Part shown: positions 12 through 26,360 of the stretch, piece after piece
How the letters are laid out: each line of letters opens with the position of its first letter
How positions within the stretch are numbered: the first letter of the stretch is position 1
From: Candidatus Omnitrophota bacterium
GTDB taxonomy: Bacteria > Omnitrophota > Gorgyraeia > Duberdicusellales > 4484-171
Length of the DNA stretch: 64,000 bases
Reading direction: 5' to 3'
Assembly: GCA_041652815.1 (NCBI GenBank)
Contig: JBAZGN010000001.1
Span: 33,363-97,362, forward strand
Notes under the pieces: generated by a model
Told to the model about the DNA's origin: nothing
What the model saw: the letters and a program-made list of their open reading frames with translations, nothing else
The model's database searches: none
Translations under genes and position numbers: made by a program

Positions 12-203
12 TTATTTTTGCTCTCCTTCACCAACAGCATCTCCTGCCTGCTGGTAGACTCCGCTTATGTGGCGCTGAAGATAAGTTGAAATCATAACCA
101 AACCAAATGCTACGGCAGCGATTAATGCTGCATACATAAGGATTGTTTGGGAACTTTTAAGATTAATTATATTATTTTTTATCATAAAAATAGACAATAC
201 CAA
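12..203 (-). CDS. Small hypothetical protein with a pilin-like N-terminus (KSSQTILMY..., hydrophobic stretch) but lacking the conserved Glu
   Basis: N-terminal pattern resembles the K[AST]Q-x-x-[LI]-E-Y motif of the downstream pilin paralogs, with E replaced by M. Partly overlaps the 172..1080 ORF. Confidence 0.2.
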   Translation of the reverse strand: MVLSIFMIKNNIINLKSSQTILMYAALIAAVAFGLVMISTYLQRHISGVYQQAGDAVGEGEQK

Positions 204-1080
204 TTACCGTACTACCATAATCTTCCATAGCAGTTAAATCATAGGTTGTAGATTTAGAAAGTTCCACTGCGTCATCGAATGTATGAATAGTTACTATACA
301 TTTCTTGCTTTCTTTTTGAAAAGTTAATGTTATTCCTTTTATCTTAAGCAGTGGTATGTTATATTCGTAACATTTTGTGCAAAAATTGCTATATGGAGCG
401 ACCATTGCAACCCATTCAGAAAAAGCATACCTTCCTATATGTGGTTCTCTATCTGTTAGTTTCCATCCAAAAGAAGGCATATTTGTTATCATAAAATTTT
501 GTACTAAATCAGCATCATCATTAGCAAGATAGGCTATACTAATAGAAGGTGGGTTTTCCCATACAAGATACTCAAATTGTTTTGAGTTGGGATAAACTGG
601 CATAAAATCTAATTTACGAGGATCACTAATATTCTGGAAAATAGCTGAAATAAATGTTTCTGCCGACGCTCGAGGATATTTATCTTTAGCATCTGCGAGA
701 GGAAATTCATCGCCCATGATTAATGCATATCTGGTTATTTTACCTTGTTCTTCGGAGAAAAGCATAAAGGTCAAAGTTATGTTTTTTTGTTTAAGTTCAT
801 TTACAAAAAAGAATGTATTTTTTTCAGAAATATCATATTTGGTGTTTTTTTCCTCAAATTTTTCGTTCTTAAATACACTGTGGTAAAATTTTATTATTTG
901 CTCTTTAGATAATTTTGACTGATATTCATATATAACTAATTTATTTTCTTTGTCCTCTGTTTTATTAACCAATTCCGTACCAAACGGTTTTGATAAATCC
1001 AAGTATTCAGCATTTACATAAAAATTGAAACTAAACATGACAAAAAATATAGATAAAAATATTGTTTTGCTAAGTTTCAT
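172..1080 (-). CDS. Secreted hypothetical protein (N-terminal signal peptide)
   Basis: Hydrophobic N-terminal signal-like segment MKLSKTIFLSIFFVMFSFNFYVNA; no recognisable catalytic motif; distal end of the pilus gene cluster. Confidence 0.4.
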   Translation of the reverse strand: MKLSKTIFLSIFFVMFSFNFYVNAEYLDLSKPFGTELVNKTEDKENKLVIYEYQSKLSKEQIIKFYHSVFKNEKFEEKNTKYDISEKNTFFFVNELKQKNITLTFMLFSEEQGKITRYALIMGDEFPLADAKDKYPRASAETFISAIFQNISDPRKLDFMPVYPNSKQFEYLVWENPPSISIAYLANDDADLVQNFMITNMPSFGWKLTDREPHIGRYAFSEWVAMVAPYSNFCTKCYEYNIPLLKIKGITLTFQKESKKCIVTIHTFDDAVELSKSTTYDLTAMEDYGSTVIGIVYFYDKK

Positions 1081-1095: not shown

Positions 1096-2445
1096 TCACT
1101 GCGCTGATACAAGCGACGCATCATGGCTTGCCTGACCATTTTCAATATCCCCATTGCCTTGGAAAGATGCTGTTGAATCACTGAAAACCGGTGGATAGGC
1201 AGTCATTATATCTATGTCGCCACGCATACCCTTTACGGGGCTACCCATATGGAATTGGAAGTTAGAAGATTCAACTTGCCGATCGTGCTCAATGTCCTCT
1301 ATATAACAAATAATATCTTTATTTGTATCATCTTTTTTGCTACTCGATTTACTATCACCCTTACGTAAACCTGCCCTAGCATCTAACACCTTACTTATTG
1401 CCTCCTGCATTGCCATATCTGCTTCCTGCATCTGGAGATCCCCTGAGGCGTCATTCTCGGGACAAGAACATCCCGGTATGGATGTACATGGTACATAGGG
1501 AATACAACTAACTGCCGTTTGGTAATCATTTATTGCGTTTTGCACATCCATTTTAGCCTCTTCAGCAAGTTGCATTGCTTCGTCAAGTTTTTCTTTTATT
1601 TGTTGGCGGTTCTCAACGGTCTCTACCACTTTGTAGTTAAGCGCGTCTTGAATATTCACAATAGCGGTAACCGTGTGAGCTCTGCCTGCACCATCTACCC
1701 AAGAAAAAGTCTTTGCCTCGCCGCTGCGGACAGTTTCAGGTTTAATTTCCTCCAAGAATGCAGAATATTGTTTTTGATTAATTTTTCCTAAACGATGGCT
1801 TATGCCGCTATTATTAAAATTATACATATAGCCTAGATAAAGAGCATTATGGTATATATCATTTTGGCCCTCGTTATCATCCTGGACTCTTTCTCTTACG
1901 GCCTTATAAAAACTTTCCTGCAAATGTGCATAATTAGGTATTAACCCTATATCATTTTCTTTTTGGTCATCTTCTGAATTTGCTTCTGGCCAAGCATTTT
2001 TAATCAATTCGTTAACCTGGCCGATAAATCCTGTTCCTTTACCGGAACCTGCCTTTTTACCAATCTTGTCGTAAGCTTTCTGCGCAAGTTCTGGAGCAAG
2101 TACGATACTAAAACAACAAGTTTTTGATTGGGCTTGTGATGAAAGCTGTGTATATTCCATATAAAGTTTGCTAGTATTTTGTACATATTTTGTGACGGCT
2201 TGATCAAACTTTTCCCAATTCTTCTTAAATGTTTTATCGCCATCGCCGGCATTCGCATTTGCCACATAATTAAACGCGTAAGCCATAGCAGATGCTCCAG
2301 AAAGGGCTGAACCGTCCGTAGCATTGCCGCTATAGGTTTTATCGAGCGCGATTTTACCGATATTTACGGTTACAAAGGTAATGGCAATTAGAGTGGCAAT
2401 AACAATAATGAAAAAAATTGAGATTTGAGTAGAATTATTTTTCAT
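1096..2445 (-). CDS. Membrane-anchored hypothetical protein, possibly pilus-associated (TadG-like by position)
   Basis: Single N-terminal transmembrane helix followed by a large extracytoplasmic domain with Cys-rich segments; sits immediately downstream of the pilin gene array. Confidence 0.35.
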   Translation of the reverse strand: MKNNSTQISIFFIIVIATLIAITFVTVNIGKIALDKTYSGNATDGSALSGASAMAYAFNYVANANAGDGDKTFKKNWEKFDQAVTKYVQNTSKLYMEYTQLSSQAQSKTCCFSIVLAPELAQKAYDKIGKKAGSGKGTGFIGQVNELIKNAWPEANSEDDQKENDIGLIPNYAHLQESFYKAVRERVQDDNEGQNDIYHNALYLGYMYNFNNSGISHRLGKINQKQYSAFLEEIKPETVRSGEAKTFSWVDGAGRAHTVTAIVNIQDALNYKVVETVENRQQIKEKLDEAMQLAEEAKMDVQNAINDYQTAVSCIPYVPCTSIPGCSCPENDASGDLQMQEADMAMQEAISKVLDARAGLRKGDSKSSSKKDDTNKDIICYIEDIEHDRQVESSNFQFHMGSPVKGMRGDIDIMTAYPPVFSDSTASFQGNGDIENGQASHDASLVSAQ

Positions 2446-2534: not shown

Positions 2535-2780
2535 TTAAAAGCAAGGGGCAGCCACGTATCTCGGCCAGGTTGCGCTTTTGTTTCCTCCGGATGCACCGCT
2601 TGCATCAACGCTACGGCTTGATGCCCCGGCTGTAACGCGTGTCGCCGTATAAGTAACTTGGCGCACCGGGATATGAGCATTTCCCCAAGCCCAGATACCC
2701 ATAGCCGCGCCTAAAATAGCGACCGCCGCCATATAAGCAACAGACGATTCAAGGGTTGCTTGAGCTTTTTTAATAAACAT
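2535..2780 (-). CDS. Flp/TadE-like prepilin
   Basis: N-terminus MFIKKAQATLESSVAYMAAVAILGAA: basic residues, then A-Q-A-T-L-E, then a hydrophobic helix (class III prepilin-like signal). Confidence 0.5.
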   Translation of the reverse strand: MFIKKAQATLESSVAYMAAVAILGAAMGIWAWGNAHIPVRQVTYTATRVTAGASSRSVDASGASGGNKSATWPRYVAAPCF

Positions 2781-2798
2781 CCGATACCTCCTAAAAAA

Positions 2799-3371
2799 TT
2801 AGCGGCTTGCGCCTGAGGCGCGGCCCTGCGGATAGCGTGTTTTATCTATCTTATAAGTCATAAATTCTGCAACGCCTGCTGAACGATTCGAACTAACTTG
2901 TCCGTCATTTCTATTAACGCTTACATTTACGGTTGTTGTGGTAACATACATCGGTGTTATTGCGCCACTACTTGCTTCTTCGCCTAAATCATACTCAATA
3001 GGCTGCCCAAACCTGCCGCCTGTTGAATTAATACCCATCCAAAGAGTTTTTTCGGGATCTTCTCCTTTATCCTCTACGCTTGGTATCGCCCACATAACAG
3101 CTCCAGAACCGCTTGAGGTTACTTTATGGCCTACTATCGGGTTACTCGCATCTGCCTGGCGCCGGTCATCCCAAGTGCCATAGGCAACAGCTTTATTATC
3201 GTTATGAGATTTCATAAGTGCCCTACGAAATGCCTGCATTAACTGGTATTGGTCACCGTTAAGCTTTGCGGCATAAGTTACAACAATGCCTACAGCCATA
3301 ACCACAATAGGCGCTAAGATTGCCATTTCCATCATTGCCTGAGCTTTTCTAGAAAAAAACTTTTGTTTCAT
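2799..3371 (-). CDS. TadE/TadF-like pseudopilin
   Basis: Start chosen at MKQKFFSRKAQAMMEMAILAPIVVM (GAGG RBS upstream). Prepilin-like N-terminus followed by a ~150 aa extracellular region. Confidence 0.5.
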   Translation of the reverse strand: MKQKFFSRKAQAMMEMAILAPIVVMAVGIVVTYAAKLNGDQYQLMQAFRRALMKSHNDNKAVAYGTWDDRRQADASNPIVGHKVTSSGSGAVMWAIPSVEDKGEDPEKTLWMGINSTGGRFGQPIEYDLGEEASSGAITPMYVTTTTVNVSVNRNDGQVSSNRSAGVAEFMTYKIDKTRYPQGRASGASR

Positions 3372-3391
3372 GATAAGCCTCATTATTATTC

Positions 3392-3865
3392 TTAACTTGA
3401 TACAAGCCAATCTTTATCATCCCACTTCTTATATTCAAGATCCGGGTAATCCGGTGTTACTGCAGCGCTCGGCGCATCCTGCACATGCAGGGCTGAACCT
3501 TTATGTTCCATTGCAGACCAACCCCTGATACTTGGAACAGGAGCCTGCAAAGTTGTCTGAGATATATTGCTTTGAGAAGTAATGGTCATATTTCCGCCGA
3601 ATTCTTCGTTTTTTGTAAGCGTTGAACTGCTGCTTGAAAATGTCGTACTGCTACCCCATTCGAGCCCGGCGTGAGCAGCTCCGCCGCCGCTTCTTATGTA
3701 TTTATCGGTTAAATCTTTAACGTGAGACTGAATGGCTCTTTTCATAAAATAATGAACTCCTCCGATGACTGCCACAATTATAAAGATAAGTATCGCGTAT
3801 TCCGCAAATGCACTTGCTTTTTTTAAAATAACTTTTTTATTCGGTTTCTTTCCCATTTCCATCAT
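3392..3865 (-). CDS. TadE-like pseudopilin
   Basis: N-terminus ...KKASAFAEYAILIFIIVAVIGGV with E-Y at +5/+6 of the putative cleavage site. Confidence 0.5.
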   Translation of the reverse strand: MMEMGKKPNKKVILKKASAFAEYAILIFIIVAVIGGVHYFMKRAIQSHVKDLTDKYIRSGGGAAHAGLEWGSSTTFSSSSSTLTKNEEFGGNMTITSQSNISQTTLQAPVPSIRGWSAMEHKGSALHVQDAPSAAVTPDYPDLEYKKWDDKDWLVSS

Positions 3866-4307
3866 AGAGGTTGCCTTCGGGATTATGCTTTTTATATATA
3901 TCCTCTGCTACTTGGTCTAGCCGCCTTAAAGAAGCTTCTGTACCTGCATCAATTTGCCCCTCAGATGGCTGTAATATTATACTATCCGAACCGGCTGCAG
4001 TCAAAGAATTGCCCCCTATAACTTTGCTGCCGTTACCCCAAGAAGATACTTTATTATTGACATTTGCTTCATTAGCCTCAGTGTCAGGCTCAATCGGCGA
4101 GCGAGAAACATCTTTTCTTAAGTTCAAAACTTCCTGCGACATTGGATTACTTTTCTGGCCAGCACTATTTGCGGATATTAGCGTCCCTGAATCTTGGCCG
4201 TTTGCACTACCTACAAAATAATTTTGTATTAGAGACAAACAAACAACAACAGCTATAAACAACACGTATTTTACCGCCATATTTTGTATTTTTTTTGTTT
4301 TAACCAT
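3837..4307 (-). CDS. Secreted hypothetical protein in the pilin cluster
   Basis: Signal-peptide-like N-terminus; GGAGG RBS 7 nt upstream of the ATG at 4307; Ser/Gly/Asn-rich. Confidence 0.35.
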   Translation of the reverse strand: MVKTKKIQNMAVKYVLFIAVVVCLSLIQNYFVGSANGQDSGTLISANSAGQKSNPMSQEVLNLRKDVSRSPIEPDTEANEANVNNKVSSWGNGSKVIGGNSLTAAGSDSIILQPSEGQIDAGTEASLRRLDQVAEDIYKKHNPEGNLYDGNGKETE

Positions 4308-4332
4308 CGCTTAACCTCCTCGAAATTACTAC

Positions 4333-4707
4333 CTACTTGCTATTCGTTGCCGTAATCGTTGCTGTTTCTACCCTGTTTGTCGAACTTGTTGTTACTGCAA
4401 AACCTTTTTCCCCTTCGTAGCAAAAATCAGTAGTTGAACGGTTCGAATGGCCTTTAGAATTAAAAGACACGATTTTACCCACGTTATTATTAGTTGCTGC
4501 CGGAGAAACCCTATAACCGCTCTCCGGAAGAGGTATCGAAAAGGAAGACGAAAAATATTGGCTGCCTAACTGGTCTGCGGTATCCTTGAGTTTCCCTTGA
4601 ATGCTTCTGTTAAAATAATACTGCATTATCATAAGGGCAGCTGCCGTAGAAGCGATAATCATAGTATATTCCAATATTGCTTGAGATTTTCTAAATGCCT
4701 TTTTCAT
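4333..4707 (-). CDS. Flp/TadE-like prepilin
   Basis: MKKAFRKSQAILEYTMIIASTAAALMIM...: K-S-Q-A-I-L-E-Y plus hydrophobic helix. Confidence 0.55.
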   Translation of the reverse strand: MKKAFRKSQAILEYTMIIASTAAALMIMQYYFNRSIQGKLKDTADQLGSQYFSSSFSIPLPESGYRVSPAATNNNVGKIVSFNSKGHSNRSTTDFCYEGEKGFAVTTSSTNRVETATITATNSK

Positions 4708-4740
4708 ATAATTTTTACTTTGCTTACACTTTATATAAAT

Positions 4741-5067
4741 TTACCAAAGATGCAATTGCCTTTTTTTATATGAATTATATGAACCCCTGACTGCAGTCGA
4801 TGTTGTGGGATGGTCCCACCCCGGTGTGGTCGATTCATTAGTGCTTACATTTGATATATAAAGCTCATAATCTTTAGTATCAGCTACCTGATATTGTTCC
4901 CCCAGCTGATCGCCATAAAGCTGAATTCTGCCTTGCATGCTGCGCCTTATGTATACCTGCATAATAAGCGCAACACCTACCAGAACCGCGATAAGCAGGC
5001 TATATTGCAGCGTTGCCTGGGCTTTTCTATAAGTATTCATAATAATATTATACACTTCTTTTTTCAA
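4741..5067 (-). CDS. Flp/TadE-like prepilin (Gln at the conserved Glu position)
   Basis: ...YRKAQATLQYSLLIAVLVGVALIM...; paralog of neighbours, E at +5 replaced by Q. Confidence 0.5.
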   Translation of the reverse strand: MKKEVYNIIMNTYRKAQATLQYSLLIAVLVGVALIMQVYIRRSMQGRIQLYGDQLGEQYQVADTKDYELYISNVSTNESTTPGWDHPTTSTAVRGSYNSYKKRQLHLW

Positions 5068-5084
5068 AAATAGCTGATGATTCT

Positions 5085-5438
5085 TTACTGCGCCGTGGTT
5101 CCCTTGTCTTTACCTACCCATTTTTCACTCTCAAGAGATTTTATCTTACGAGTTGCATTCTGTGTTTGCTTCATACCGCCGATGTTAACTACAGTTTGCG
5201 TACTGTAACCTTTGGTAGTAGCTTCAGTCATCGGTGCAGTCAGGTTCGAAACCATTTCATCCTGCCGAAAGGTTAAACCCGGCGAATATTGCTCGCCTAT
5301 TTCATCAGCTGACGCTTGTAATCTTCCCTGAACGCTTCTTTTTAGATAATTCTGCATTGTAAGGAGCCCGCCTACTACAACGCTTATAAGAAGCGCGTAT
5401 TCCAATGTGCTTTGCGCTTGTCTAAGTTTTGTTAACAC
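5085..5438 (-). CDS. Flp/TadE-like prepilin
   Basis: MLTKLRQAQSTLEYALLISVVVGGLLTM... Confidence 0.55.
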   Translation of the reverse strand: MLTKLRQAQSTLEYALLISVVVGGLLTMQNYLKRSVQGRLQASADEIGEQYSPGLTFRQDEMVSNLTAPMTEATTKGYSTQTVVNIGGMKQTQNATRKIKSLESEKWVGKDKGTTAQ

Positions 5439-5457
5439 TTTAGCACCTCCTTTTAAA

Positions 5458-5763
5458 TTATTTACTTTCTTGTGATGTCCAAACAGCAGTACTGGTATCG
5501 GTTGTAGTTATCCAAGGTTCGTCACTGCCGGCTGTAACATAATTTTCTGTTCTTACACGATTTTGCGACTGCTCTGTAGTCGTTTTAATGCCGGTTGTAG
5601 GTTCATATTCCTGGTTGTTTGAAAGCACCATTGCTGCATCGTGAATTCGTGCCTGAATAGCGCGCTTTACTTCAGCCTGTATGCCCATCGCTGCAGCAAC
5701 AACAAGCGAAAGAAGTATCGCGTATTCCGCTGTAGATTGCGCTTTTCTTAATTTTCTTAACAT
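5458..5763 (-). CDS. Flp/TadE-like prepilin
   Basis: MLRKLRKAQSTAEYAILLSLVVAAAMG... Confidence 0.55.
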   Translation of the reverse strand: MLRKLRKAQSTAEYAILLSLVVAAAMGIQAEVKRAIQARIHDAAMVLSNNQEYEPTTGIKTTTEQSQNRVRTENYVTAGSDEPWITTTDTSTAVWTSQESK

Positions 5764-5788
5764 TTTATTACACCTCCTTTAAGTAAGC

Positions 5789-5977
5789 TTAGTTTCCGCC
5801 TACGTTGCTACGAAAATTAGTAGATGCATCCTCAATAGTTCCTGATGCTTCGCCAAACATCTTATCCACTGCTTTTGTCACAACGCCGTTTTTCCCTGTA
5901 GCTGCAACTACTGCTGCAACTATTGCCGAAAGGACCAGTATATACTCAAGGATACTTTGAGCTTTTTTCACTACCAT
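5789..5977 (-). CDS. flp: Flp-family pilin (62 aa)
   Basis: MVVKKAQSILEYILVLSAIVAAVVAATG...; size and architecture typical of Flp pilins. Confidence 0.6.
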   Translation of the reverse strand: MVVKKAQSILEYILVLSAIVAAVVAATGKNGVVTKAVDKMFGEASGTIEDASTNFRSNVGGN

Positions 5978-5999
5978 TTCAATTCACCCCCCCCTTATT

Positions 6000-6158
6000 T
6001 TATCGGACACCATTCATTGGATCGCTTAAGTCAGCTTTTATATGATAAAATCTTGCATTGATTGAACGAATTATATATCCACTCATTGTAGCAAGAGAAA
6101 TAGATACTATAGCGATTAGAAGTGCGTAGTCGAGAAAACTTTGAGCTTTTTTTAACAT
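6000..6158 (-). CDS. flp: Flp-family pilin (52 aa, below ORF-track cutoff)
   Basis: Manual translation of the minus strand: MLKKAQSFLDYALLIAIVSISLATMSGYIIRSINARFYHIKADLSDPMNGVR. Same N-terminal motif as neighbours (D replaces E). Confidence 0.5.
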   Translation of the reverse strand: MLKKAQSFLDYALLIAIVSISLATMSGYIIRSINARFYHIKADLSDPMNGVR

Positions 6159-6161
6159 AAT

Positions 6162-6341
6162 TTATTGTGCATATTTACCTATGCCGGCCTGTAAATTGGT
6201 TAATCCCCTTTTTACACCTATACGCAAAACTCCTGTTCCAACTACAATAGCCACGATTATTGCCCCTACAACAATTAAATATTCAATGATAACCTGCGAT
6301 TTAAGATATCCAATTTTGATTTTTTTACCTGTTAGTTTCAT
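6162..6341 (-). CDS. flp: Flp-family pilin (59 aa, below ORF-track cutoff)
   Basis: Manual translation: MKLTGKKIKIGYLKSQVIIEYLIVVGAIIVAIVVGTGVLRIGVKRGLTNLQAGIGKYAQ. Confidence 0.5.
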   Translation of the reverse strand: MKLTGKKIKIGYLKSQVIIEYLIVVGAIIVAIVVGTGVLRIGVKRGLTNLQAGIGKYAQ

Positions 6342-6477
6342 TTAACTCCTGGGCTAAATGCCTCATCCTGATATCAACTTCTCTTCTTATATATGTACTC
6401 ATTGCCGTCAACGCAAGAGAAACAATCACTATTAGGCCTGCGTATTCAATTATGCTTTGTGTTTTTTTATTTTTCAT
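6325..6477 (-). CDS. flp: Flp-family pilin (50 aa, below ORF-track cutoff)
   Basis: Manual translation: MKNKKTQSIIEYAGLIVIVSLALTAMSTYIRREVDIRMRHLAQELNETNR; its 3' end overlaps the next pilin gene by 17 nt. Confidence 0.45.
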   Translation of the reverse strand: MKNKKTQSIIEYAGLIVIVSLALTAMSTYIRREVDIRMRHLAQELNETNR

Positions 6478-6489
6478 ATACTTTAAGAA

Positions 6490-6651
6490 TTACTCTGTAT
6501 CTAACATTTGATTGGCAACTTTATTCTGATAACCTGAAAAGTTTGTGCCGTTTGTTGCAAAATACGCTGCTACGCCAATTGCTGCAAACATAACGGCAAC
6601 GCATATATATTCGATAATCGACTGCGTTTTTTTAAGTTTTTTGTTTTTCAT
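6490..6651 (-). CDS. flp: Flp-family pilin (53 aa); first gene of the pilin array
   Basis: Internal start of the 137-aa ORF at MKNKKLKKTQSIIEYICVAVMFAAIGVAAYFA...; AGGAGG RBS 7 nt upstream. The longer ORF upstream of this Met is the GC-rich structured leader, not coding. Confidence 0.55.
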   Translation of the reverse strand: MKNKKLKKTQSIIEYICVAVMFAAIGVAAYFATNGTNFSGYQNKVANQMLDTE

Positions 6652-6663
6652 GCCTTTCCTCCT

Positions 6664-6714
6664 AAAAATAAAAAACCGGACTGCCGACTCATAGTGAGAC
6701 GTTCGGCAGCCCGG
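6664..6714 (-). terminator. Intrinsic terminator hairpin within the pilin leader (minus strand CCGGGCUGCCGA-loop-UCGGCAGUCCGG followed by UUUUUU)
   Basis: An 11-12 bp GC-rich stem plus U6 tract, ending about 20 nt before the RBS of the first pilin gene. Confidence 0.5.
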
Positions 6715-6940
6715 TTGTCCTATTAAAACAGGGACCCGTAACTTAAACTTGTTTTGGACCCGTGGCTTTGCTCCTCCCGACTTTGCGCCGGGACTTGCCC
6801 TTTCGTCGCCTCCTGTACCATATAAGTATACCATATTAAAACTTAAAAAATCAACCCAGTCCTGATTATTTTTGAAACCGCTTACAATTAAATTAGCTAA
6901 CAAATACGGGTATTTTTAGGCTGGGCTTGATTAAATTTTA
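6715..6940 (-). promoter_or_regulatory. Structured 5' leader (riboswitch/attenuator-like) plus putative promoter upstream of the pilin array
   Basis: Locally GC-rich, non-coding. Minus strand carries GCAAAG twice and GAGCAAAGCCACGGGUCC; extended -10-like TGTATAAAAT around 6935-6946 (minus strand). Confidence 0.3.
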
Positions 6941-7096: not shown

Positions 7097-8521
7097 TTAA
7101 ACCGCGAAAACCCTTCTCTGCCCTATGTAAAGACTGGCGTTATTGATTTCTTTCTTTGTTTCGAAAGATAAACTCTTCATTATTATTTTACAAAAATCTT
7201 TTCCTAAAACGTACTGGCCGAAGCTGTTCGTAAAAGATGCTACCCCGAATTGCTCTTTAAATACCTCAACAAGAATGTCGGTGATTTGCTTAAAATCCGA
7301 TTCTTTTTCCAAATTCAAAATATCGGGCATATATTTTACCAAATTCTTTTTGCTTTCTTTATTAAGAAAATAGTTCTCTATTGTTTTCATATCGCCTAAA
7401 AATACCCTTTCCATATAAGGCCAGACGAGTAAGTATTTTTTTAAAAGGTAAGCTAAGTTGGTTTTCCGGTCAGTTAAAACTGCCCAATTCGGCAGCATTC
7501 TTTCTTTGGTTTTTGTCAAAATATTATTCAGTATAACCGCTTGGTTTCCTTTTGGCTGTGAAAATCTTGTAAGCACGGGCACATAGAAAGTTTCACTCTC
7601 TATAAGCAGCAACCTCTTAAATCTCTTGGCTTTTTCCAAAAATGCTGCGCCTTTATTCAATATTTTTGGATAATACCCCATTAAAAAAGCAGGGTTAGAT
7701 AAATTACATTCTATTCTTTCTAATACTTTACCTTTTTCATCCAATAGCTCTATTTTGTTAATTCCGGAAGATATGCCGCTTATAAAGCTTATAGTAAGCG
7801 TTGAAAGATAATCAAAGCTTTTAGTATATCCGATAATTATAGTTTTATCTTTCAAAAGCCGGGAGACTGAAGCCCTTACATGATATAAAGGCATAAAGAA
7901 ATCATCGATATTGCAGGGACCGTCCCAAAGTGTGGTTAATTTTGCATCGGAAAATCCGATTGTCTCATTTAGAAAATAAAACTTTACCGTTGAAACGAGT
8001 TTAAGCCTTTCTTTTATTTTCTCTAAGCTTATTGCCGGTTTATAATTAACCGTTCGTAAAGAAAAGTATTTTACGCTTTTTGCGGGATAAAAAAAACATT
8101 CGCAAAGCCGTAAAAACCCCGGCCTTTTTACATTTTTCTCTACCTGGCCGCCGATATAAGAAGAAAAACTAAACATTATTATAAGCTTCTTTATCAAATT
8201 TACGCTTAAATGCGGGAAATAGGCGCGTAATTCTTCTTTTAAAAAATCATAGAAACCAACCTGCGAATCTATGGCCTTCAGTAACAATAGCCCGCAGTCT
8301 TGAATGGATTTACCCTGATACAAAAGAAGATGTTTTTTCCTGCCGCGCGCGGATTGTGTGCCTTTTGTTTTTAAAACAGTACTGATTGTACTTTTAGAAA
8401 TGTTTAGCTGGTGTTTTTCTTTTAAAAGCCGGGATAATCCTCTTACGCCAAGATGGGGGTTTCTTTTGGCTTCAGATAGAATGAGATTCTTGTTGATAGA
8501 ATTTGTCTTAACTCGCATCAA
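7097..8521 (-). CDS. Hypothetical protein with N-terminal helix-turn-helix (transposase-like N-terminus; no clear DDE)
   Basis: N-terminus ...ILSEAKRNPHLGVRGLSRLLKEKHQLNISKSTISTVLKTKG resembles HTH domains of IS630/Tc1-type transposases; remainder unassignable by eye. Confidence 0.3.
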   Translation of the reverse strand: MMRVKTNSINKNLILSEAKRNPHLGVRGLSRLLKEKHQLNISKSTISTVLKTKGTQSARGRKKHLLLYQGKSIQDCGLLLLKAIDSQVGFYDFLKEELRAYFPHLSVNLIKKLIIMFSFSSYIGGQVEKNVKRPGFLRLCECFFYPAKSVKYFSLRTVNYKPAISLEKIKERLKLVSTVKFYFLNETIGFSDAKLTTLWDGPCNIDDFFMPLYHVRASVSRLLKDKTIIIGYTKSFDYLSTLTISFISGISSGINKIELLDEKGKVLERIECNLSNPAFLMGYYPKILNKGAAFLEKAKRFKRLLLIESETFYVPVLTRFSQPKGNQAVILNNILTKTKERMLPNWAVLTDRKTNLAYLLKKYLLVWPYMERVFLGDMKTIENYFLNKESKKNLVKYMPDILNLEKESDFKQITDILVEVFKEQFGVASFTNSFGQYVLGKDFCKIIMKSLSFETKKEINNASLYIGQRRVFAV

Positions 8522-8693: not shown

Positions 8694-9761
8694 TTAAGCC
8701 ATCTCCGAGAAAATCTTTTCATCAAGAAGCCCTAACCGGTTAAATTCAGCAAAAAAGCGGGGATACATTCTCATTACTGTCCTAAATTTTCCTTTTATTC
8801 TTCCGTCCGGGGTTCTACCTTCGCGCCTAAAAATAAATAAATCCTGAAGCGCCACTTCGCCGCGTTCGACTCCACGCGCCTCAGATATATGGGTTATCCT
8901 TCTTACCCCGTCAGGGAAACGTTCTTGCTGGACTATTACATGCAAGGTATTACCTATCATTCTTCTTATTTCTTCAATCGGCAGCTTAATTCCGCTTGAT
9001 AAAATAAGGGTCTCCATACGACTGGTCACTTCCTGGGGGCTATTAGCATGGATTACGGCGAGAGTTCCGCGATGGCCGGTTGACATTGCCTGAATCATAT
9101 CGAGCGCTTCCGGGCCTCTGACTTCACCGACGATAATTCTATCCGGCCGCATACGAAGAGCATTTCTTATCAAATCACGCAAAGTAACTTCGCCTTTTCC
9201 GTCTTTATCCGGTGCGCGCGTTTCCATAGGCACAAGGTTTTCCTGATGCAAAATCAATTCCGCAGTATCTTCAATGGTTACAACCCGCTCCTGCTCAGGA
9301 ATATGATAAGAAAGCATTTCCATTGTTGTGGTTTTTCCTGAACCGGTGGCTCCTGAGAAAAGCACGTTTACTTTTCCGTGGATACAGGCAATTAGAAAAT
9401 CCGCCATTTTTTTGCTCATTGTGCCTTCCTTCATAAGGTCTTCCAGGCTATGAAGGTTTCGGTTAAATTTCCTGATGGTTATTGCTGTGCCGCGGCGGGA
9501 AAGCGGGTAAGTTATAAGATTCATACGCGAGCCATCCGGAAGGGCAACGTCGCCGAAAGGGTTATAGTAAGATATGGGCTTACCGGCTTTAGCGTAAAAT
9601 TCCTCTATGATATCGTTTATATCTTCTTCCGTAAAAGTCAGCTCAATCTTACTCTTGACGCCGCCTATTTCCAGAAAAGTATCTTTGGACCCATTTATCA
9701 TAATTTCGGTAATTTTGGGGTCCTTCAGCAATTGCCTTATTTTATCTGCGCCTAATCCCAT
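8694..9761 (-). CDS. cpaF: CpaF/TadA-family pilus assembly ATPase (short form, ATPase core only)
   Basis: Walker A GATGSGKTT, Asp/His boxes; T2SS/T4SS-E ATPase fold; 355 aa. Confidence 0.8.
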   Translation of the reverse strand: MGLGADKIRQLLKDPKITEIMINGSKDTFLEIGGVKSKIELTFTEEDINDIIEEFYAKAGKPISYYNPFGDVALPDGSRMNLITYPLSRRGTAITIRKFNRNLHSLEDLMKEGTMSKKMADFLIACIHGKVNVLFSGATGSGKTTTMEMLSYHIPEQERVVTIEDTAELILHQENLVPMETRAPDKDGKGEVTLRDLIRNALRMRPDRIIVGEVRGPEALDMIQAMSTGHRGTLAVIHANSPQEVTSRMETLILSSGIKLPIEEIRRMIGNTLHVIVQQERFPDGVRRITHISEARGVERGEVALQDLFIFRREGRTPDGRIKGKFRTVMRMYPRFFAEFNRLGLLDEKIFSEMA

Positions 9762-9857: not shown

Positions 9858-12023
9858 TTAATCTTTCGGTACAAATATTTCCCTCGATAAATCAACACCC
9901 CTGGCTCTTATTTCATCATAGAAAGTAGGTATATAGCCAAGCGGGGTGAAATAACCTATAACATTACCTTCCGCATCAACACCGGTTTGCCTATGCGTAA
10001 ATATATCCTGCAAATTGATATGCGTTTCATCAAGCATGCCGACGACTTCGGTAATCCCGGTAACCTTTCTTGAACCGTCGGACAAACGCGCAGTTTGTAC
10101 TATAACATGTATAGCTGAAGCAACTTGCTCTCGTATAGCACGAATGGGCAGCTCTATCCCCGCCATAAGAATCATACTGTCAAGCCTTATCAAAACATCA
10201 TGAGTTGAATTAGCATGGATTGTAGACATACTCCCATCGTGGCCTGTATTCATAGCCTGCAACATATCTAAAACTTCCTTTCCTCTTACTTCGCCAACGA
10301 TAATTCTATCCGGCCTCATACGCAAAGTGTTTCTGAATAAATCTCTTATTGTGATTTCTCCTTTTCCTTCTATGTTTGGGGGACGAGCTTCAAGCCGTAT
10401 CCAATGCCTCTGGTTCAATTTAAGTTCTGCCGAATCTTCAATTGTAACTATACGCTCCCGCTCTGGTATACAGGACGAAAGTATATTTAAAAATGTAGTT
10501 TTACCCGAACCGGTGCCGCCTGAAACCAGTATGTTTTTTCTCGATTTAACCGCAGCTTCCAGAAAAAGCGCCATATCCGGGGTAAGACTTGCGAAACGGT
10601 TAATCAAGTCATCCATTGTCCAGCGTTGACGGGCAAATTTTCTTATGGTAAGTGTTGGCCCCGTCAAAGATAAAGGCGAAATTATTGCATTAACACGCGA
10701 GCCGTCAGGAAGCCTGGCATCAACATAAGGAATTGATTCGTCAATGCGCCTGCCAAGCGGCGCAAGTATCCTTTCTATCACTATACGCACTTGTTCATTA
10801 CTCGTAAATTTTTTGCTGGTTAATTCAATTTTTCCAAATCTCTCTATGTATATCTGGTCTTTATTATTAACCATAATTTCCGTAACCGTTACGTCTTTAA
10901 GTAGGTCCTCAAGCGGCCCAAGGCCCAAAGCCTCTTCTACTATTTCTTTAGTTATTTTTCTCCTGATTTCCGTTGAAGCAATAAAGCCCCCTGCTTCTTT
11001 ACTGATAACGTTTGAAACAATTTTTTCTGCTTTTGCCCGTAACTCAGCCATTTTCTGGGCGCTGCCGGCATACATTTCAACCTGCACTCTTTTTAAATCA
11101 AGCTCTTCGATGAGCTTTTCATGCACTGTTTTTTTAAATTTTATTATTTGGTCTTCTTCTTCAAGGAGAGTGGTTTTCTCTGCTTTTTCCATCACGCCCA
11201 CGCGCTGCCAGAAAACTTCCTCTCCTTCAAAAGCCTCTTTAACCACTCTTACTTCACTTAAAGTTTTATGGCTTATATAAATATCTTTTCTTTCGATTAT
11301 ATCTTTGGCGAGCTTTTGTATGGCGCTTGTAAATTTACATTGCGGGTTGTCTATAATCAGAGGCACTCCACGGTTAACGGCAAGGCCGGCGGCTTTTCCC
11401 TCCGAGGGAATGAGCCCGATAATTTCCGAAGGAAGCAGTGTTTTTATTTCCTGCCAGGTTATTGCCCCTTTGCTTTCCGCGCGGTTAAGCACTATTTTTG
11501 TCATCGTCAGCGGAAAACCAAGGCTCTGGAGAGTATCCAACAACCACTGTGTTTGATAAACCGATAAAATATCCGGCGTAAGCACAAGGCTTATAAGGTT
11601 AGAACTTTCAAGGGTTGCTATGAGATTATCCGTTAAGCTTGAGCCTGCATCTATTATAATATAATCAAAATCATTCCATATAATCGATATGAAATCTTTC
11701 ATCATTTGCGGAGTAAAAGATGTACGCTGGGACATTTTGAAGATTGCCGGAAGAAATACCAGATTGCCCCTATAAATTGCGCTGTAATTATCTATGGTTC
11801 TTTTTTTCTCTTTAAAATCTTTAAGGTAATCTAAGAGGTTGAAAAGGCAGTATTTACTCTCAACTCCCAGCAGCTTTGACGTTGCCTGTGGAGCTCCTAA
11901 ATCAAAATCCAGCAAAAATACTTTTTTGTTTTGCAGGGAAAGTTGAACGGCAAGATTTAAGGAAACAAGCGTTTTTCCTACGCCGCCCTTGGTGCTAAAG
12001 AAAGAAATTACCTTCGCCTCCAT
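9858..12023 (-). CDS. Fusion protein: TadZ/CpaE-like ParA/MinD ATPase domain (N) + full CpaF/TadA secretion ATPase (C)
   Basis: N-terminus FFSTKGGVGKTLVSLNLA (deviant Walker A of MinD/ParA/CpaE); C-terminal half has GGTGSGKTT and the CpaF core; 721 aa. Confidence 0.7.
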   Translation of the reverse strand: MEAKVISFFSTKGGVGKTLVSLNLAVQLSLQNKKVFLLDFDLGAPQATSKLLGVESKYCLFNLLDYLKDFKEKKRTIDNYSAIYRGNLVFLPAIFKMSQRTSFTPQMMKDFISIIWNDFDYIIIDAGSSLTDNLIATLESSNLISLVLTPDILSVYQTQWLLDTLQSLGFPLTMTKIVLNRAESKGAITWQEIKTLLPSEIIGLIPSEGKAAGLAVNRGVPLIIDNPQCKFTSAIQKLAKDIIERKDIYISHKTLSEVRVVKEAFEGEEVFWQRVGVMEKAEKTTLLEEEDQIIKFKKTVHEKLIEELDLKRVQVEMYAGSAQKMAELRAKAEKIVSNVISKEAGGFIASTEIRRKITKEIVEEALGLGPLEDLLKDVTVTEIMVNNKDQIYIERFGKIELTSKKFTSNEQVRIVIERILAPLGRRIDESIPYVDARLPDGSRVNAIISPLSLTGPTLTIRKFARQRWTMDDLINRFASLTPDMALFLEAAVKSRKNILVSGGTGSGKTTFLNILSSCIPERERIVTIEDSAELKLNQRHWIRLEARPPNIEGKGEITIRDLFRNTLRMRPDRIIVGEVRGKEVLDMLQAMNTGHDGSMSTIHANSTHDVLIRLDSMILMAGIELPIRAIREQVASAIHVIVQTARLSDGSRKVTGITEVVGMLDETHINLQDIFTHRQTGVDAEGNVIGYFTPLGYIPTFYDEIRARGVDLSREIFVPKD

Positions 12024-12079: not shown

Positions 12080-13690
12080 TTAACGCTTATTTTTTTCGCG
12101 GTAAACTATCGGCACGTCAATATTCAATTCCCGTATATCGCTGTCTGGCGGAAACGGCGGGAATGTCAAGCTTCTTACAAGCTTTACTGCGTCGGTATCG
12201 AATATCCTATGGCCGGAAGATTTTGTAATTTTCACGTCTTTAATGTCACCTGTTTGGTTGATATTTAATTTCAAAACAACCATTCCTTCCCAGCCCGTCT
12301 GCATAAGCGAAGGCGGATATGAAATATTGTTTGCTATTTCATCCTGCACATCCAATACGTAATTTTGTAAATTGTTAGGTATTATTCCGGTATATAGTTC
12401 CAGGTTCTTTTTCTCCGATACTTCTTTTACTTCGGGAATTTCCTCTTTATCATCCAACGGTATAACTTTGGGGGTAAGCGATATTACCAATTCTGTTTGC
12501 GAGTTTTGAAATTCCTTTGACCGGAATAACGCTCCAATTACCGGTAAATTACCCAAAGCAGGCAGTTTGTCTATGCTTTCGGAGTCTTTCTGTTTTATGA
12601 GCCCTGCTATAAATATCGTATCTCCTGATTTAAGATTCAAAACGGTTTCCGCAATTCTTGTAGTAAATGCCGGAACCCTCGTACCTGAAACCGTTATGGC
12701 ATTTACCAAATCCAAGGCGCTTACTTCCGCACGCATACTTGCATAAATCTTTTTATTATCGCTTGAAACTATCGGCCTTATTTTTAAAATGACTCCGTAT
12801 TCCTTATAAGAAACACTGACTGAAGTTCCGGCTGAACCCGTAGTTGAACCGCTTAGATACGGCACTTCTCCACCTACCGACAGTTTAGCTTCCTCGCCGC
12901 TTAAACATAATAACTTTGGCCTGGACAATTCTTTGCCTTTGCCGTCACGAACAAGCATATCAATTCTTGCGGTTAACGCATCTCTTGACCAGCTTCCCAT
13001 ACCCCAGGCAGCAGTCCATGGCTTTTGAATGTTAAGTGTGGTTGACACGCCGGTGGCACTTGCAGCAGGAGCAACATAAGGCTCCTGGCGGATTTGTATA
13101 TATTCCTGCCATTTTACACCGAGCCTGTCGAGGTCGCTTTTGTTTAATTCAAGGATGCGGGCTTCTATTTCAACCATCTTAGTTTCTTTCTTTACGGTCA
13201 AAATGTTGTCAACCCTGTCCTTAAAAGACTCAACAACCTTGTCTATTTGTTCTTTCTCAATACTGGTTATGTCTCCTGCGATAATTATTTTTCCTGTAGC
13301 TTCATTTTTCTTTAAAACCACGTTGCTTATTTTCAAATCTCGCCTTATAAGCTTCTCCAGCCGCATCAATACCCTGTCGAGGTCTTGCGAATATACGGTT
13401 ATATAATAAGTCTTTTCCCCGTCTTTATTCCAGATGGTTAGCGTTGTTTCGCCGGGCTTTTTAGCTACAATTACTATTTCTTTATCCGATACTTTTGTTA
13501 TATCAGCTGTTTCAGGGTCGCGCATGGAAACTCTCTGAGGGAAAGAAACTGCTATTGCCATAGCCTCTCCGGAAACTAAAGTATATTCATCTTCGGCTAA
13601 TGGCTCAAAAATATTTTGCGAAAAGGAAAATGAATTGGTTAGTAAGAAGACGATAAAACTTATATGTATGAATATTTTTCTTAGCATCAA
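12080..13690 (-). CDS. cpaC: CpaC/RcpA-like secretin with an additional C-terminal TonB_C-like domain
   Basis: Secretin core ...GDTIFIAGLIKQKDSESIDKLPALGNLPVIGALFRSKEFQNSQTELVISLTPKVI. C-terminal YPPSLMQTGWEGMVVLKLNINQTGDIKDVKITKSSGHRIFDTDAVKLVRSLTFPPFP matches the TonB C-terminal domain pattern. Confidence 0.75.
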   Translation of the reverse strand: MMLRKIFIHISFIVFLLTNSFSFSQNIFEPLAEDEYTLVSGEAMAIAVSFPQRVSMRDPETADITKVSDKEIVIVAKKPGETTLTIWNKDGEKTYYITVYSQDLDRVLMRLEKLIRRDLKISNVVLKKNEATGKIIIAGDITSIEKEQIDKVVESFKDRVDNILTVKKETKMVEIEARILELNKSDLDRLGVKWQEYIQIRQEPYVAPAASATGVSTTLNIQKPWTAAWGMGSWSRDALTARIDMLVRDGKGKELSRPKLLCLSGEEAKLSVGGEVPYLSGSTTGSAGTSVSVSYKEYGVILKIRPIVSSDNKKIYASMRAEVSALDLVNAITVSGTRVPAFTTRIAETVLNLKSGDTIFIAGLIKQKDSESIDKLPALGNLPVIGALFRSKEFQNSQTELVISLTPKVIPLDDKEEIPEVKEVSEKKNLELYTGIIPNNLQNYVLDVQDEIANNISYPPSLMQTGWEGMVVLKLNINQTGDIKDVKITKSSGHRIFDTDAVKLVRSLTFPPFPPDSDIRELNIDVPIVYREKNKR

Positions 13691-13706: not shown

Positions 13707-14519
13707 TTATCGTTCTACAGGAATCTCTTCCTGCTTAGCGCCTTTATAAATTTCTATGGTCGGGGGTTTTTCCTGCGGAATAGTGCGCTGTATTAATCCC
13801 AATTTATTTAAAAGCCCCTCGAGCGTAAGTGCGGAATATTCGGGCTCTCCGGCTTTATCCAAAGGCGTCCTTAATACCAGGCGTATTTTGCCAAGCTCAA
13901 GCGAATACGTCAGCAATTTTGTACCATCCGGGTCAAGCGCAAGCGTAATTGTATCGGCTTTTCCTTCTGCCCGGTAAGGAGACAGATTTTTGTTGGTGGC
14001 AAGGACTTTTACGTTTTGAAAAAGCGTAATTACAATAGGTGGGCTTGCTCCTTTTTCGGCAGGAAAGCTGAATGTACCTATAATATCAACTATATCTCCC
14101 GGCTTAATCAACCCCTCTACCGCAGAAAGTTTATCTACGGAAATAGTAATTGCGCGTTTACCTTCAGGAACGGCGTCAGAAAGGTATTTAAAACCAATTA
14201 ACGGCTTAACTGCTTCACTGTTTAAATGCTGGTCTTTTAAAACATCTGTTATGGCAAACTTTCCTATAACTGAATCAACTGACGTTAAATCGCCGGGCTG
14301 TAAAGTTTTCGAAGCAACAGTGGCGAGTTTTACCATATCCGAAGTAATTGTGGTTTCTCTTGCGATATCTTCTTTTGCCACAACAACCTCAACCAATTGC
14401 CCTTTCTTAATAAGTTCCTGGATAAGCCGTTCTCGTGTTTGCATCTGGGCGTTTATAACGATGATAGCAATAATTGCAATACCTACGCCGATTAATAAGT
14501 TCACGATCCTTTTATCCAT
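13707..14519 (-). CDS. cpaB: CpaB/RcpC-like Flp pilus assembly protein
   Basis: N-terminal TM helix, SAF-like domain; first gene of the cpaB-cpaC-ATPase order. Confidence 0.7.
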   Translation of the reverse strand: MDKRIVNLLIGVGIAIIAIIVINAQMQTRERLIQELIKKGQLVEVVVAKEDIARETTITSDMVKLATVASKTLQPGDLTSVDSVIGKFAITDVLKDQHLNSEAVKPLIGFKYLSDAVPEGKRAITISVDKLSAVEGLIKPGDIVDIIGTFSFPAEKGASPPIVITLFQNVKVLATNKNLSPYRAEGKADTITLALDPDGTKLLTYSLELGKIRLVLRTPLDKAGEPEYSALTLEGLLNKLGLIQRTIPQEKPPTIEIYKGAKQEEIPVER

Positions 14520-14535: not shown

Positions 14536-14627
14536 TAGAAGCGGATTACCGCGGATGTTTACGCGGATTTACGCACGGTAATTTGCTTGCGTTTATCCGC
14601 GTTTAGATCCGCGGATATCCGCTTCTA
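14536..14627. repeat. 'gcggat' palindromic element, complete copy without cargo (arm1 tagaagcggattaccgcggatgtttacgcggat; arm2 atccgcgtttagatccgcggatatccgcttcta)
   Basis: Two inverted arms about 35 bp each separated by about 25 bp; the same arms recur at 20843-20885/21282-21320, 27536-27578/27975-28013 and 32673-32847. Confidence 0.75.
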
Positions 14628-15515
14628 TTTTAACAAATCTTCTGATTTTTCTACGCGCGCTTTCGCCTTAAAACTTTCGATTAATTTATTAACCTCTTGT
14701 TCGGTTTTGTCTTCCCGCAATGCGTCTTCAAGTTTTTTCTCTACGTCAGCGAAAGAAACCTCTCCACCGCCCTTTGCTTCTTCAACTTTTATTATATAAT
14801 ATTTGCCGTCATCGGCCTTGAAATAATTTGACAATCTTCCCGGCTCAACCGTAGCAATAGCTGCCCAAAATTTTGCGTTTTTTTGCAAATCTTCAAGCGA
14901 GGGAGTTAGCCAGCCGCGGTCTCCCCCCTTATCCCTGGAAGGCGCAACAGATTCCTGGCGGGCTATTTTCTCAAAATCTTCGCCCGTGAGTAACCTAACA
15001 TAAATATTCTTTGCATCAGCCTCGGAATTTACTGCTATTTCTCTAATCTTTATTTGGCGCGGTTCTTTAAAAAATTCCTTGTTTTTATCGTAAAAAGCGC
15101 GGACTTCTGCGTACGAAACGGTTACGCTTTTTTCTATATCTTTTCTAATTTTTGCCGCAAGCAGCGTGTCGCGCGTATCCCTCAATGCCCTTGCGATATC
15201 ATCACTTTTATCAATTCCTTTTTCTGTAGCTATTTGAGCCAGTATTTGGTTCTTGATAAGGTCGTTAAGAAACTTAATTTTGAAGTCTGTGCTGTTTACG
15301 TTTATGTTTTGCTGGGTAGCTATTGGCTCTATGCTTCTTAAATAATTTTTAAAATCGTCCAAGCCTATCGCCCAACTATTTACTCTGGCGAGCAGCGCGC
15401 CGTGAATAGCCACTTCTTCATTTGTTTCGGCTGGCTTCGGCGGAAAAACTTTATCACAGCCGATAAAAACTGCGATAAGAAATATAAGTGTAACAACTGG
15501 AAACGCCTTACGCAT
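14625..15515 (-). CDS. PrsA/SurA-like parvulin-type peptidyl-prolyl isomerase lipoprotein
   Basis: Lipobox-like FIGC; PpiC-type motif region IKIREIAV...ESVAPSRDKGGDRGWL. Confidence 0.6.
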   Translation of the reverse strand: MRKAFPVVTLIFLIAVFIGCDKVFPPKPAETNEEVAIHGALLARVNSWAIGLDDFKNYLRSIEPIATQQNINVNSTDFKIKFLNDLIKNQILAQIATEKGIDKSDDIARALRDTRDTLLAAKIRKDIEKSVTVSYAEVRAFYDKNKEFFKEPRQIKIREIAVNSEADAKNIYVRLLTGEDFEKIARQESVAPSRDKGGDRGWLTPSLEDLQKNAKFWAAIATVEPGRLSNYFKADDGKYYIIKVEEAKGGGEVSFADVEKKLEDALREDKTEQEVNKLIESFKAKARVEKSEDLLK

Positions 15516-15840
15516 TGAACCTCCTCTATAGTTATAAGTTTATCAATATAACCTTATTAAATCAAGATTTTTTTTAAAAATAAATCCGGCCAGGAAACTC
15601 ATCCCGTTTAGAGATTTATTCCTAACAGGATAAGCTGCATAATTTTTATCGTTGCCTTTGGGGCAAATTTAGTTTAGAATATAGCAATGAACCCAGCCCT
15701 TCCAAGGTGTTATACTTATCCAAACAGTATAGTAAATTTGTTAGGAACAAGGCTGGTTAGTTTAGGCTGCAAAAATAATTTTCAGAAATTTACCGTTTGA
15801 AATAATTCATAAAACACTACTCGAAAAAAGGAAGGGCTGG

Positions 15841-16425: not shown

Positions 16426-16449
16426 ACATCGGCCTTCTTTTTTAATAAT

Positions 16450-18878: not shown

Positions 18879-18945
18879 GATATAACCTCCATTAATGAGC
18901 ACATCATTTTTTCAAGTGTATCAACACGTAGAAAAAATGATAGTG

Positions 18946-19064: not shown

Positions 19065-19107
19065 GCTACGCAAATTTTCTGCGCTTCTGGCTTGAAAATT
19101 TGCTGCC

Positions 19108-19659: not shown

Positions 19660-19667
19660 GTTTTATT

Positions 19668-26352: not shown

Positions 26353-26360
26353 GTTTTATT

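Follow-up and report, generated by a model that had tools for sequence, protein, structure and literature searches.

The window analyzed here, a 64,000-nucleotide (nt) stretch of a contig from a Candidatus Omnitrophota bacterium, very probably holds an operon for the pilins and minor pilins of a Tad-type (type IVc) pilus. Thirteen paralogous genes for small prepilin-like proteins are flanked by a block encoding a TadZ-TadA fusion, a second ATPase, a secretin and CpaB on one side and by a block encoding TadG-like, TadB and TadC proteins on the other, and all genes of the locus that fall in the window lie on the minus strand. The locus is a lineage-wide variant of a known machine and not a new kind of system. 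Omnitrophota are uncultured and mostly ultra-small, and Tad pili have been proposed to attach them to prey or hosts (PMC10066038). Tad complexes of the phylum are present in the literature; its searchable part contains no description of their pilins.

Of the components that define a Tad system, all but the TadV/CpaA (A24) prepilin peptidase, whose gene usually belongs to such loci, are encoded together: a TadA/CpaF-family ATPase, separate TadB and TadC proteins, a TadZ/CpaE ParA-like domain, and a secretin with RcpC/CpaB. An earlier reading of the same sequence (the original prediction), which had proposed the prepilin array, found no TadB/TadC platform in the window. This is true of the window itself, but the platform genes adjoin it on the same contig (L002), 2.7-4.4 kb to the left of window position 1, as two adjacent genes for proteins of 281 and 285 amino acids (aa) with one T2SSF domain (PF00482) each. 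Relatives were collected by scanning one genome per species for tblastn-confirmed matches to [RK][KQ]AQxT[AL]EYA; 163 genomes encode a relative, and 80 related loci were kept, 49 of them labelled Omnitrophota and the rest mostly third-party metagenome-assembled genomes (MAGs) of "uncultured Planctomycetia/-ales". Among the 43 long related loci, TadZ-TadA is found in 38 and homologs of TadB and TadC in 40 and 36, respectively. The top NCBIfam match of the fusion protein is the TadA model TIGR03819, at 343 bits slightly under the equivalog cut-off of 373.

This single Tad locus encodes two TadA-like ATPases. One is the fusion with the TadZ-like ParA domain; homologs of the other, ATPase2, occur in 54 of 80 related loci. 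Classical Tad systems typically have a single ATPase, and a division of labor between extension and retraction is conceivable for the pair. We know of no other Tad secretin with a TonB_C domain. The 474-aa helix-turn-helix (HTH) protein encoded between ATPase2 and the array has no match in PDB or NCBIfam. Its gene is present as a single copy in 67 of 81 loci, with nonsynonymous differences (pN) well below synonymous ones (pS), and the distribution rules out an insertion sequence, its remnant or another mobile element. Of the related Tad loci, 34 (e.g. L036, 5398-5742) encode a DUF192 protein (PF02643) ~114 aa long; there is no copy in L002, whose coverage of the Tad locus runs leftward from the TadZ-TadA gene and does not extend to the rest of the window.

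Twelve of the paralogs form an array at 2535-6651. Each open reading frame (ORF) begins with a basic leader followed by A, S or T at position -1 of the presumed cleavage site, Q (S in one) at +1, and a hydrophobic helix of ~20 residues; position +5 is E in ten, D in one and Q in one, and the Gly at -1 that is canonical for bacteria is absent. ORF listing, translation and N-terminal alignment bear out this core of the original prediction, including the replacement of Glu+5 in two members (D in p52, Q in p99). Some of its details shift. The proteins fall into five tiny (50, 52, 53, 59 and 62 aa), five mid-size (81, 99, 101, 117 and 124 aa) and two large ones (157 and 190 aa) in place of four, five and three, and the run of genes, described as consecutive, is interrupted at 3837-4307 by an ORF lacking the motif, which had been counted as the third large gene and has a homolog in only one of 80 loci. 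The proposed motif [AST]-Q-[AST]-x-[LI]-E-Y is approximate, with V at +2 in one protein, A or M at +4 in three, M or S at +6 in two and the Ser at +1. The further paralog placed at 12-203 exists and has Met at +5, but its likely start is at 185. The array genes all run in one direction, spaced by -29 to 44 nt, six of them have AGGAGG-type ribosome-binding sites, and a strict motif scan in six frames of the window gave matches confined to genes of this locus.

The array proteins have the general makeup of class III or type IV prepilins: a leader of 5-17 aa with K or R, a small residue at -1, a hydrophobic stretch and, in most, an acidic residue at +5. Compared with the Flp motif G/XXXXEY, EY is present at +5/+6 and A, S or T stands in place of G. 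A profile search with Flp, TadE and class III models, which the original prediction had named as a check, was not significant for the window proteins and succeeded through relatives only. Among 129 diverse array members of related genomes, 38 match Class_IIIsignal (best E-value 1e-8), 25 Flp_Fap, 7 Flp1_like, 6 DUF4244 and 2 Pilin_N, and both A-Q and G-Q forms match the Class_IIIsignal/Flp_Fap models. A profile of the 13 window proteins retrieved 281 database proteins with E-values down to 4e-34; among the 120 matches listed, none has a precomputed Pfam domain, and some of the matches carry the Joint Genome Institute (JGI) names "Flp pilus assembly pilin Flp" or "UPF0333 family". When this profile is aligned to mature PilA, the Tad pilin of Caulobacter (PDB 8u1k), the two are in register, Q falling at +1 and E at +5. 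Gene context, the matches of the relatives and the in-register alignment jointly identify prepilin-like proteins of a Tad/Flp-type system, and the class III pilin assignment is well supported by context and family-level matches.

Several results weigh against this assignment. None of the 13 window proteins reaches a curated threshold in Pfam or NCBIfam. Their best Pfam scores are those to TadE (p190) and Flp_Fap (p52) given in Table 1 and one to DUF7096 (E-value 0.017); NCBIfam gave nothing relevant. For Flp_Fap (PF04964), the best window protein scores 13.4 bits against a gathering score of 32.2, and the top individually scored relatives, at 20.7-23.8 bits, are also below it. For TadE (PF07811), p190 scores 15.5 bits against 22.9. 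No window protein matches Class_IIIsignal (PF04021) at an E-value of 1 or less, and one relative reaches 23.5 bits against a gathering score of 23.7. The alignment to Caulobacter PilA, with an E-value of 1, is not significant by itself. AlphaFold2 predicts a helix over residues 2-51 of p117, with a predicted local distance difference test score (pLDDT) above 90 for roughly residues 11-40 and a low-confidence tail, and the p190 model (pLDDT 41) is unusable; the low confidence of the mid-size C-termini and of p190 as a whole lends no support to a pilin head-domain fold.

Table 1. Features of the pilus locus, in order from the right to the left end of the locus (slash, between residues -1 and +1)
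Feature	Position	Strand	Description and evidence
CpaB/RcpC Flp pilus assembly protein	13707-14519	-	Pfam RcpC E=1.3e-23, and SAF; NCBIfam TIGR03177 pilus_cpaB, 148 bits (cut-off 71)
Secretin (RcpA/CpaC-like) with C-terminal TonB_C	12080-13690	-	Pfam Secretin E=2.6e-42, T2SS-T3SS_pil_N E=6.7e-11, TonB_C E=5e-16
TadZ-like ParA/MinD domain fused to TadA/CpaF-type ATPase	9858-12023	-	721 aa; AAA_31/CbiA/ParA at residues 4-207; T2SSE at 366-646, E=4e-65
Second, shorter TadA-like traffic ATPase (ATPase2)	8694-9761	-	355 aa; Pfam T2SSE E=6e-48; TIGR03819, 254 bits
Protein with N-terminal Tc3-transposase-like HTH	7097-8521	-	474 aa; Pfam HTH_Tnp_Tc3_2 E=6e-7, under gathering score
Cyclic di-GMP (c-di-GMP)-I riboswitch aptamer	6702-6809	-	Rfam RF01051, 42.9 bits (gathering score 35)
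Intrinsic terminator hairpin and U-run	6662-6724	-	Terminator scan; minimum-energy fold forms the hairpin, z=-3.7
p53	6490-6651	-	53 aa; KT/QSIIEY; AGGAGG ribosome-binding site
p50	6325-6477	-	50 aa; KT/QSIIEY; orthologs in 60 loci; dN/dS 0.15-0.30
p59	6162-6341	-	59 aa; KS/QVIIEY; 17-nt overlap with p50
p52	6000-6158	-	52 aa; KA/QSFLDY, D at +5; Pfam Flp_Fap E=0.068
p62	5789-5977	-	62 aa; KA/QSILEY
p101	5458-5763	-	101 aa; KA/QSTAEY; AAGGAGGTG ribosome-binding site; 70 loci
p117	5085-5438	-	117 aa; QA/QSTLEY; 80 loci
p99	4741-5040	-	99 aa; KA/QATLQY, Gln at +5
p124	4333-4707	-	124 aa; KS/QAILEY
Interleaved ORF without pilin motif	3837-4307	-	156 aa; N-terminus signal-peptide-like; lineage-specific
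p157, large pilin-like	3392-3865	-	157 aa; KA/SAFAEY, S at +1
p190, TadE-like	2799-3371	-	190 aa; KA/QAMMEMAILAP; Pfam TadE E=0.019, under threshold
p81, pilin-like	2535-2780	-	81 aa; KA/QATLES, non-aromatic +6
TadG-like protein	1096-2445	-	Pfam Tad (PF13400) E=8.5e-6, 26.4 bits (gathering score 22.3)
Secreted or lipoprotein-like protein, conserved in locus	172-1080	-	302 aa; family in 26 loci
p57, thirteenth paralog	12-185	-	SS/QTILMY, Met at +5; called as 57 aa in public annotation

A c-di-GMP-I riboswitch, which the original prediction did not contain, sits in the 445-nt gap ahead of the first pilin gene. The aptamer scores above the RF01051 gathering score and has the conserved stems of the family, and the orthologous matches in L010 and L011 score 45.7 and 40.5 bits. 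Its 3' arm (CCGGGCUGCCGA) is at the same time the 5' arm of the terminator hairpin. The 12-bp terminator stem shows compensatory changes in 14 genomes and the aptamer stems covary too; in 36 of 76 related loci, an nhmmer profile places the aptamer and terminator just ahead of the first pilin gene. Promoter and terminator scans gave counts no higher than in shuffled sequence, and only the hairpin at 6673-6690 is meaningful, given the riboswitch. The hairpin is likely to be the expression platform, and since aptamer and terminator share a strand, an ON switch is predicted, in which the ligand-held aptamer strand would prevent termination. Two points temper this prediction: the ON direction rests on the sequence overlap and one energy-minimized fold, and c-di-GMP is assigned as ligand by the RF01051 match, with a related dinucleotide as the alternative. 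A gene for a GGDEF diguanylate cyclase lies in the window (37151-38326, minus strand), so the organism can make the presumed ligand.

In Clostridioides difficile, the type IV pilin gene pilA1 is under the control of a c-di-GMP-II ON switch. As here, a c-di-GMP leader with a terminator platform directly precedes the pilin gene and induction is predicted at high c-di-GMP; the element described here differs in being of class I (RF01051) and in standing ahead of a Tad multi-pilin operon in a diderm candidate phylum. A second profile match to the riboswitch and terminator lies at 18884-19091 of L002, ~8-10 kb to the left of the window. The gene downstream of it (19240-20382) encodes a repetitive surface protein that is rich in Asn/Gly and matches nothing in Pfam. 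L016, L032, L077 and L086 have second copies of a similar kind.

The array is an ancient ordered set of distinct orthologous slots under purifying selection. Paralog order agrees in 98% of 2172 pairwise comparisons, and positional orthologs, 30-86% identical, exist for every window paralog. Of the 724 motif ORFs in 81 related loci, 714 share the strand of the array and 10 are on the opposite strand. Residues particular to single slots are kept: D at +5 in 19 of 23 orthologs of p52, N or S at +1 in the p157 slot (N in 15 of 20 orthologs), and the lack of an aromatic residue at +6 in the p81 and p190 slots. This conservation of slot order and slot-specific residues rules out recent tandem amplification, an origin that the description as a tandem array might imply. 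For all small ORFs, pN is far below pS, and the ratio of nonsynonymous to synonymous substitution rates (dN/dS) is 0.06-0.41 wherever computable; the array ORFs are therefore real genes. The original prediction had counted untranslated small ORFs as a possible refutation and had recovered three genes below a 60-aa cutoff by manual translation. These genes exist, and public gene calls on the same genome already list them; exact protein matches assign the window to a Candidatus Omnitrophica MAG (GCA_023227945.1 and others). With pN well below pS, ORFs of less than 60 aa cannot be dismissed as spurious. One related locus, L086 (JAIWAR010000014.1), is binned in a "Methanosarcinales archaeon" MAG and has the Omnitrophota-type makeup, with the HTH protein, riboswitch, 12 pilins, TadB/C and an ATPase. 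Because its riboswitch element (c-di-GMP-I) and its locus-specific genes (HTH protein, TadB/TadC) are those of the other loci, this contig is probably mis-binned.

The pilin slots diverge far faster than the motor. Between the window and the loci L007 and L008, ATPase2 is 98-99% identical, p62 87-92%, p50 ~60%, p53 43-52% and p124 34-39%. Such unequal divergence suggests slot-specific diversification or allele replacement of some pilins, and fast divergence is often seen in surface-exposed or host-interacting proteins. The contrast between ATPase2 and slots such as p124 and p53 would also suit an array of alternative major pilins used singly for antigenic or host-range variation and not as a co-assembled set. 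We consider this improbable: each slot has its own identity, size, quirks and fixed position in many genomes, the genes form one closely spaced, co-directional run, and a single riboswitch-terminator element lies upstream of them. No invertible or recombination elements were seen in a repeat scan that covered long direct repeats only and included no inverted-repeat search.

Across the 724 array pilins of the 81 loci, position -1 is A in 55%, G in 34%, S in 8% and T in 3%; Q makes up 90% of the residues at +1, and E and D make up 92% and 5% of those at +5. G is mixed with A, S or T at -1 in 67 of the 81 loci, and 12 loci, like that of the window, have no G. The residue interchanges among G, A, S and T even within single orthologous slots, as in the orthologs of p117 (A 41, G 36, S 3) and p62 (A 28, G 24, S 2), a pattern that fits a putative cleavage site requiring only a small residue. 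The absence of Gly at -1 from this genome, noted in the original prediction, is real. To call the site non-canonical is right in part. Ala is accepted for bacterial prepilin peptidases, PilD being described as cleaving "at a glycine or alanine" (PMC3244431), whereas Ser or Thr and a lineage-wide dominance of residues other than Gly are unusual; the label does not hold for Gln at +1. According to a major review, Gly is the invariable last residue of bacterial leaders, and only archaea provide exceptions (PMC4471445). Lineage-wide A/S/T at -1 is thus unusual for bacteria and not unprecedented.

The resemblance of the array pilins to PF04021 extends to the EppA-dependent (Epd)/DUF361 pilins of the archaeon Methanococcus maripaludis, and Class_IIIsignal is the Pfam model that most relatives match. 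Gln+1 and Glu+5, as in the QXSXEXXXL-type motif, are shared, and so is the presence of numerous pilin-like genes in a genome, which fall into two size classes and include major pilins of very small size (PMC2910488, PMC3875500, PMC4390842). The M. maripaludis leaders differ in ending in Gly and the pilins in lacking Tyr+6 (PMC3875500), in place of A/S/T at -1 and Tyr+6 here, and the machinery of the present locus, which includes a secretin and CpaB, is that of Tad systems in diderm bacteria. Since the Tad system is considered to have arisen from an Epd-like system of archaea (PMC6668835), the PF04021 resemblance may be ancestral.

An acquisition of the pilin genes, though not the machinery, from archaea such as methanogen hosts would account for the same likeness. 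It would agree with the larger number of array members matching the archaeal Class_IIIsignal (38) than the bacterial Flp_Fap (25), with matches of some members to Flp1_like, Pilin_N and DUF7287/7289, and with the JGI label "UPF0333 family" on some relatives, which we take to be an archaeal family name. The L086 locus is found in a MAG labelled Methanosarcinales, and a described Omnitrophota species was grown in co-culture with Methanosaeta, a methanogenic archaeon (PMC10066038). Such a transfer nevertheless seems unlikely to us. If Tad as a whole descends from an Epd-like system (PMC6668835), the shared features are possibly ancestral; Tyr at +6 is near universal here, as is typical of bacterial Flp, and M. 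maripaludis pilins are reported to lack it, while Epd leaders end in Gly (PMC3875500); the L086 contig is probably mis-binned.

As the original prediction stated, the window contains no TadV prepilin peptidase gene. No Peptidase_A24 domain was found by Pfam in nearly all candidate ORFs of at least 120 aa, the ORFs at 38630-41872 and 44192-45394 being excepted; precomputed Pfam annotation was used for the 48-64 kb region, and two unannotated ORFs, read directly, encode an anti-sigma-like and a coiled-coil protein. For the 80 related arrays, two scans for GxGD-type motifs and clustering of ORFs revealed no A24 peptidase (TadV/CpaA) at a distance of up to 10 kb, where TadB/C were the only conserved multi-pass membrane families; no EppA-like gene lies nearby. 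Processing is thereby left without an assigned enzyme, which also counts against the pilin operon. TadV can be encoded away from the Tad locus (PMC6668835).

That the array proteins are instead unprocessed small bitopic membrane proteins, sharing an N-terminal anchor and acting as accessory or regulatory factors of the Tad machine, is very improbable: a peptidase gene missing near all 81 loci, the curated thresholds missed by the window proteins and a -1 residue that is never Gly in this genome would suit such proteins, but the combination of a small residue, Q, E/D at +5 and a 20-residue hydrophobic stretch is the constraint of a class III signal peptide (PMC4471445, PMC2910488), relatives match Class_IIIsignal and Flp_Fap, the locus contains no other candidate fiber subunit, and a separately located tadV has precedent (PMC6668835).

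As a pilin operon, the locus can be compared with the Tad/Flp pili of Aggregatibacter actinomycetemcomitans and the Cpa pili of Caulobacter crescentus. In common are CpaB/RcpC, secretin, TadZ-like, TadA/CpaF, TadE-like and TadG-like proteins and a platform of two single-domain proteins, TadB and TadC. The smallest pilins (50-62 aa), whose residues +5 and +6 are E and Y, are a further common feature, as is the in-register alignment of the profile with mature Caulobacter PilA. Those systems have few flp genes plus tadE and tadF, in contrast to the 13 paralogs in fixed order here. The present locus further differs in having A/S/T at -1 (never G in the genome) with Q at +1, TadZ fused to TadA, a second ATPase, no tadV in the locus, the conserved 474-aa HTH protein, a c-di-GMP riboswitch leader, and proteins that fall below the Flp_Fap and TadE gathering scores. 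The work of Seymour et al. 2023 on Tad complexes in Omnitrophota (Velamenicoccus archaeovorus) concerns the same phylum and the same kind of system; TadB/C and RcpA were reported to be widespread and linked to a predatory or parasitic lifestyle, based on an analysis of TadB/C, RcpA, TadZ and Flp by KEGG and TXSScan (PMC10066038). The searchable text and supplements of that study describe neither the pilin array nor the signal motif, the absent peptidase or the riboswitch, and its supplements hold no tadV or pilD entries.

We propose that high c-di-GMP would stabilize the aptamer and block the terminator, allowing transcription into the pilin genes. The prepilins would insert into the inner membrane, where an A24-family peptidase encoded elsewhere in the genome may remove the basic leader of 5-17 residues by cutting between the small residue (A/S/T in this genome, G/A/S/T across the lineage) and Gln+1. 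Driven by Glu or Asp at +5 and the hydrophobic helix, the pilins would then assemble on the TadB/TadC platform, with TadZ-TadA supplying the power and the secretin serving as the exit for the filament. The fiber may consist of one or a few small or mid-size pilins; p101, p117 and p62 are the strongest candidates, having the best ribosome-binding sites and the widest conservation. The TadE-like, p157, p81 and TadG-like proteins would be priming or tip subunits. The pilus may attach the cell to surfaces or host cells, as proposed for Omnitrophota Tad systems.

An exact (100%) tandem duplication with a period of 6,693 bp starts beside the Tad locus (window positions 14617-21273 and 21310-27966). 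The duplicated unit encodes a peptidyl-prolyl isomerase (PPIase)/SurA-like protein, a PIN_5 nuclease, a UvrD helicase, an extracytoplasmic function (ECF) sigma/anti-sigma pair, GTP cyclohydrolase I and a PD-(D/E)XK protein, and may reflect a very recent event or an assembly artefact.

The combined features raise the possibility of a distinct Tad subtype of Omnitrophota, possibly shared with related members of the Planctomycetes-Verrucomicrobia-Chlamydiae (PVC) group, that joins an Epd-like signal (Gln+1 with any small residue at -1), a relaxed or divergent peptidase never encoded with the system, 13 fixed, non-redundant subunits in a complex pilus or tip, and a c-di-GMP riboswitch ON switch with host attachment by ultra-small cells. 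We put this joint proposal forward tentatively and think it doubtful that all of its parts hold; if true, the system would stand as an intermediate between the Epd pili of archaea and the classical Tad pili of bacteria.

The locus defines a set of 13 ordered slots for the fiber subunits of Omnitrophota, which are annotated as hypothetical and escape the standard Flp, TadE and class III models, and it flags the question of the peptidase, no A24 gene being found at it. A whole bacterial lineage that uses A, S or T as freely as Gly at the processing site relaxes a rule that has been stated as invariant for bacteria (PMC4471445). The riboswitch would link pilus production to c-di-GMP in a manner that is testable in vitro without culturing the organism. 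A profile of the family would improve the annotation of Tad pilins in metagenomes, and it would also be of use for understanding attachment by these ultra-small bacteria.

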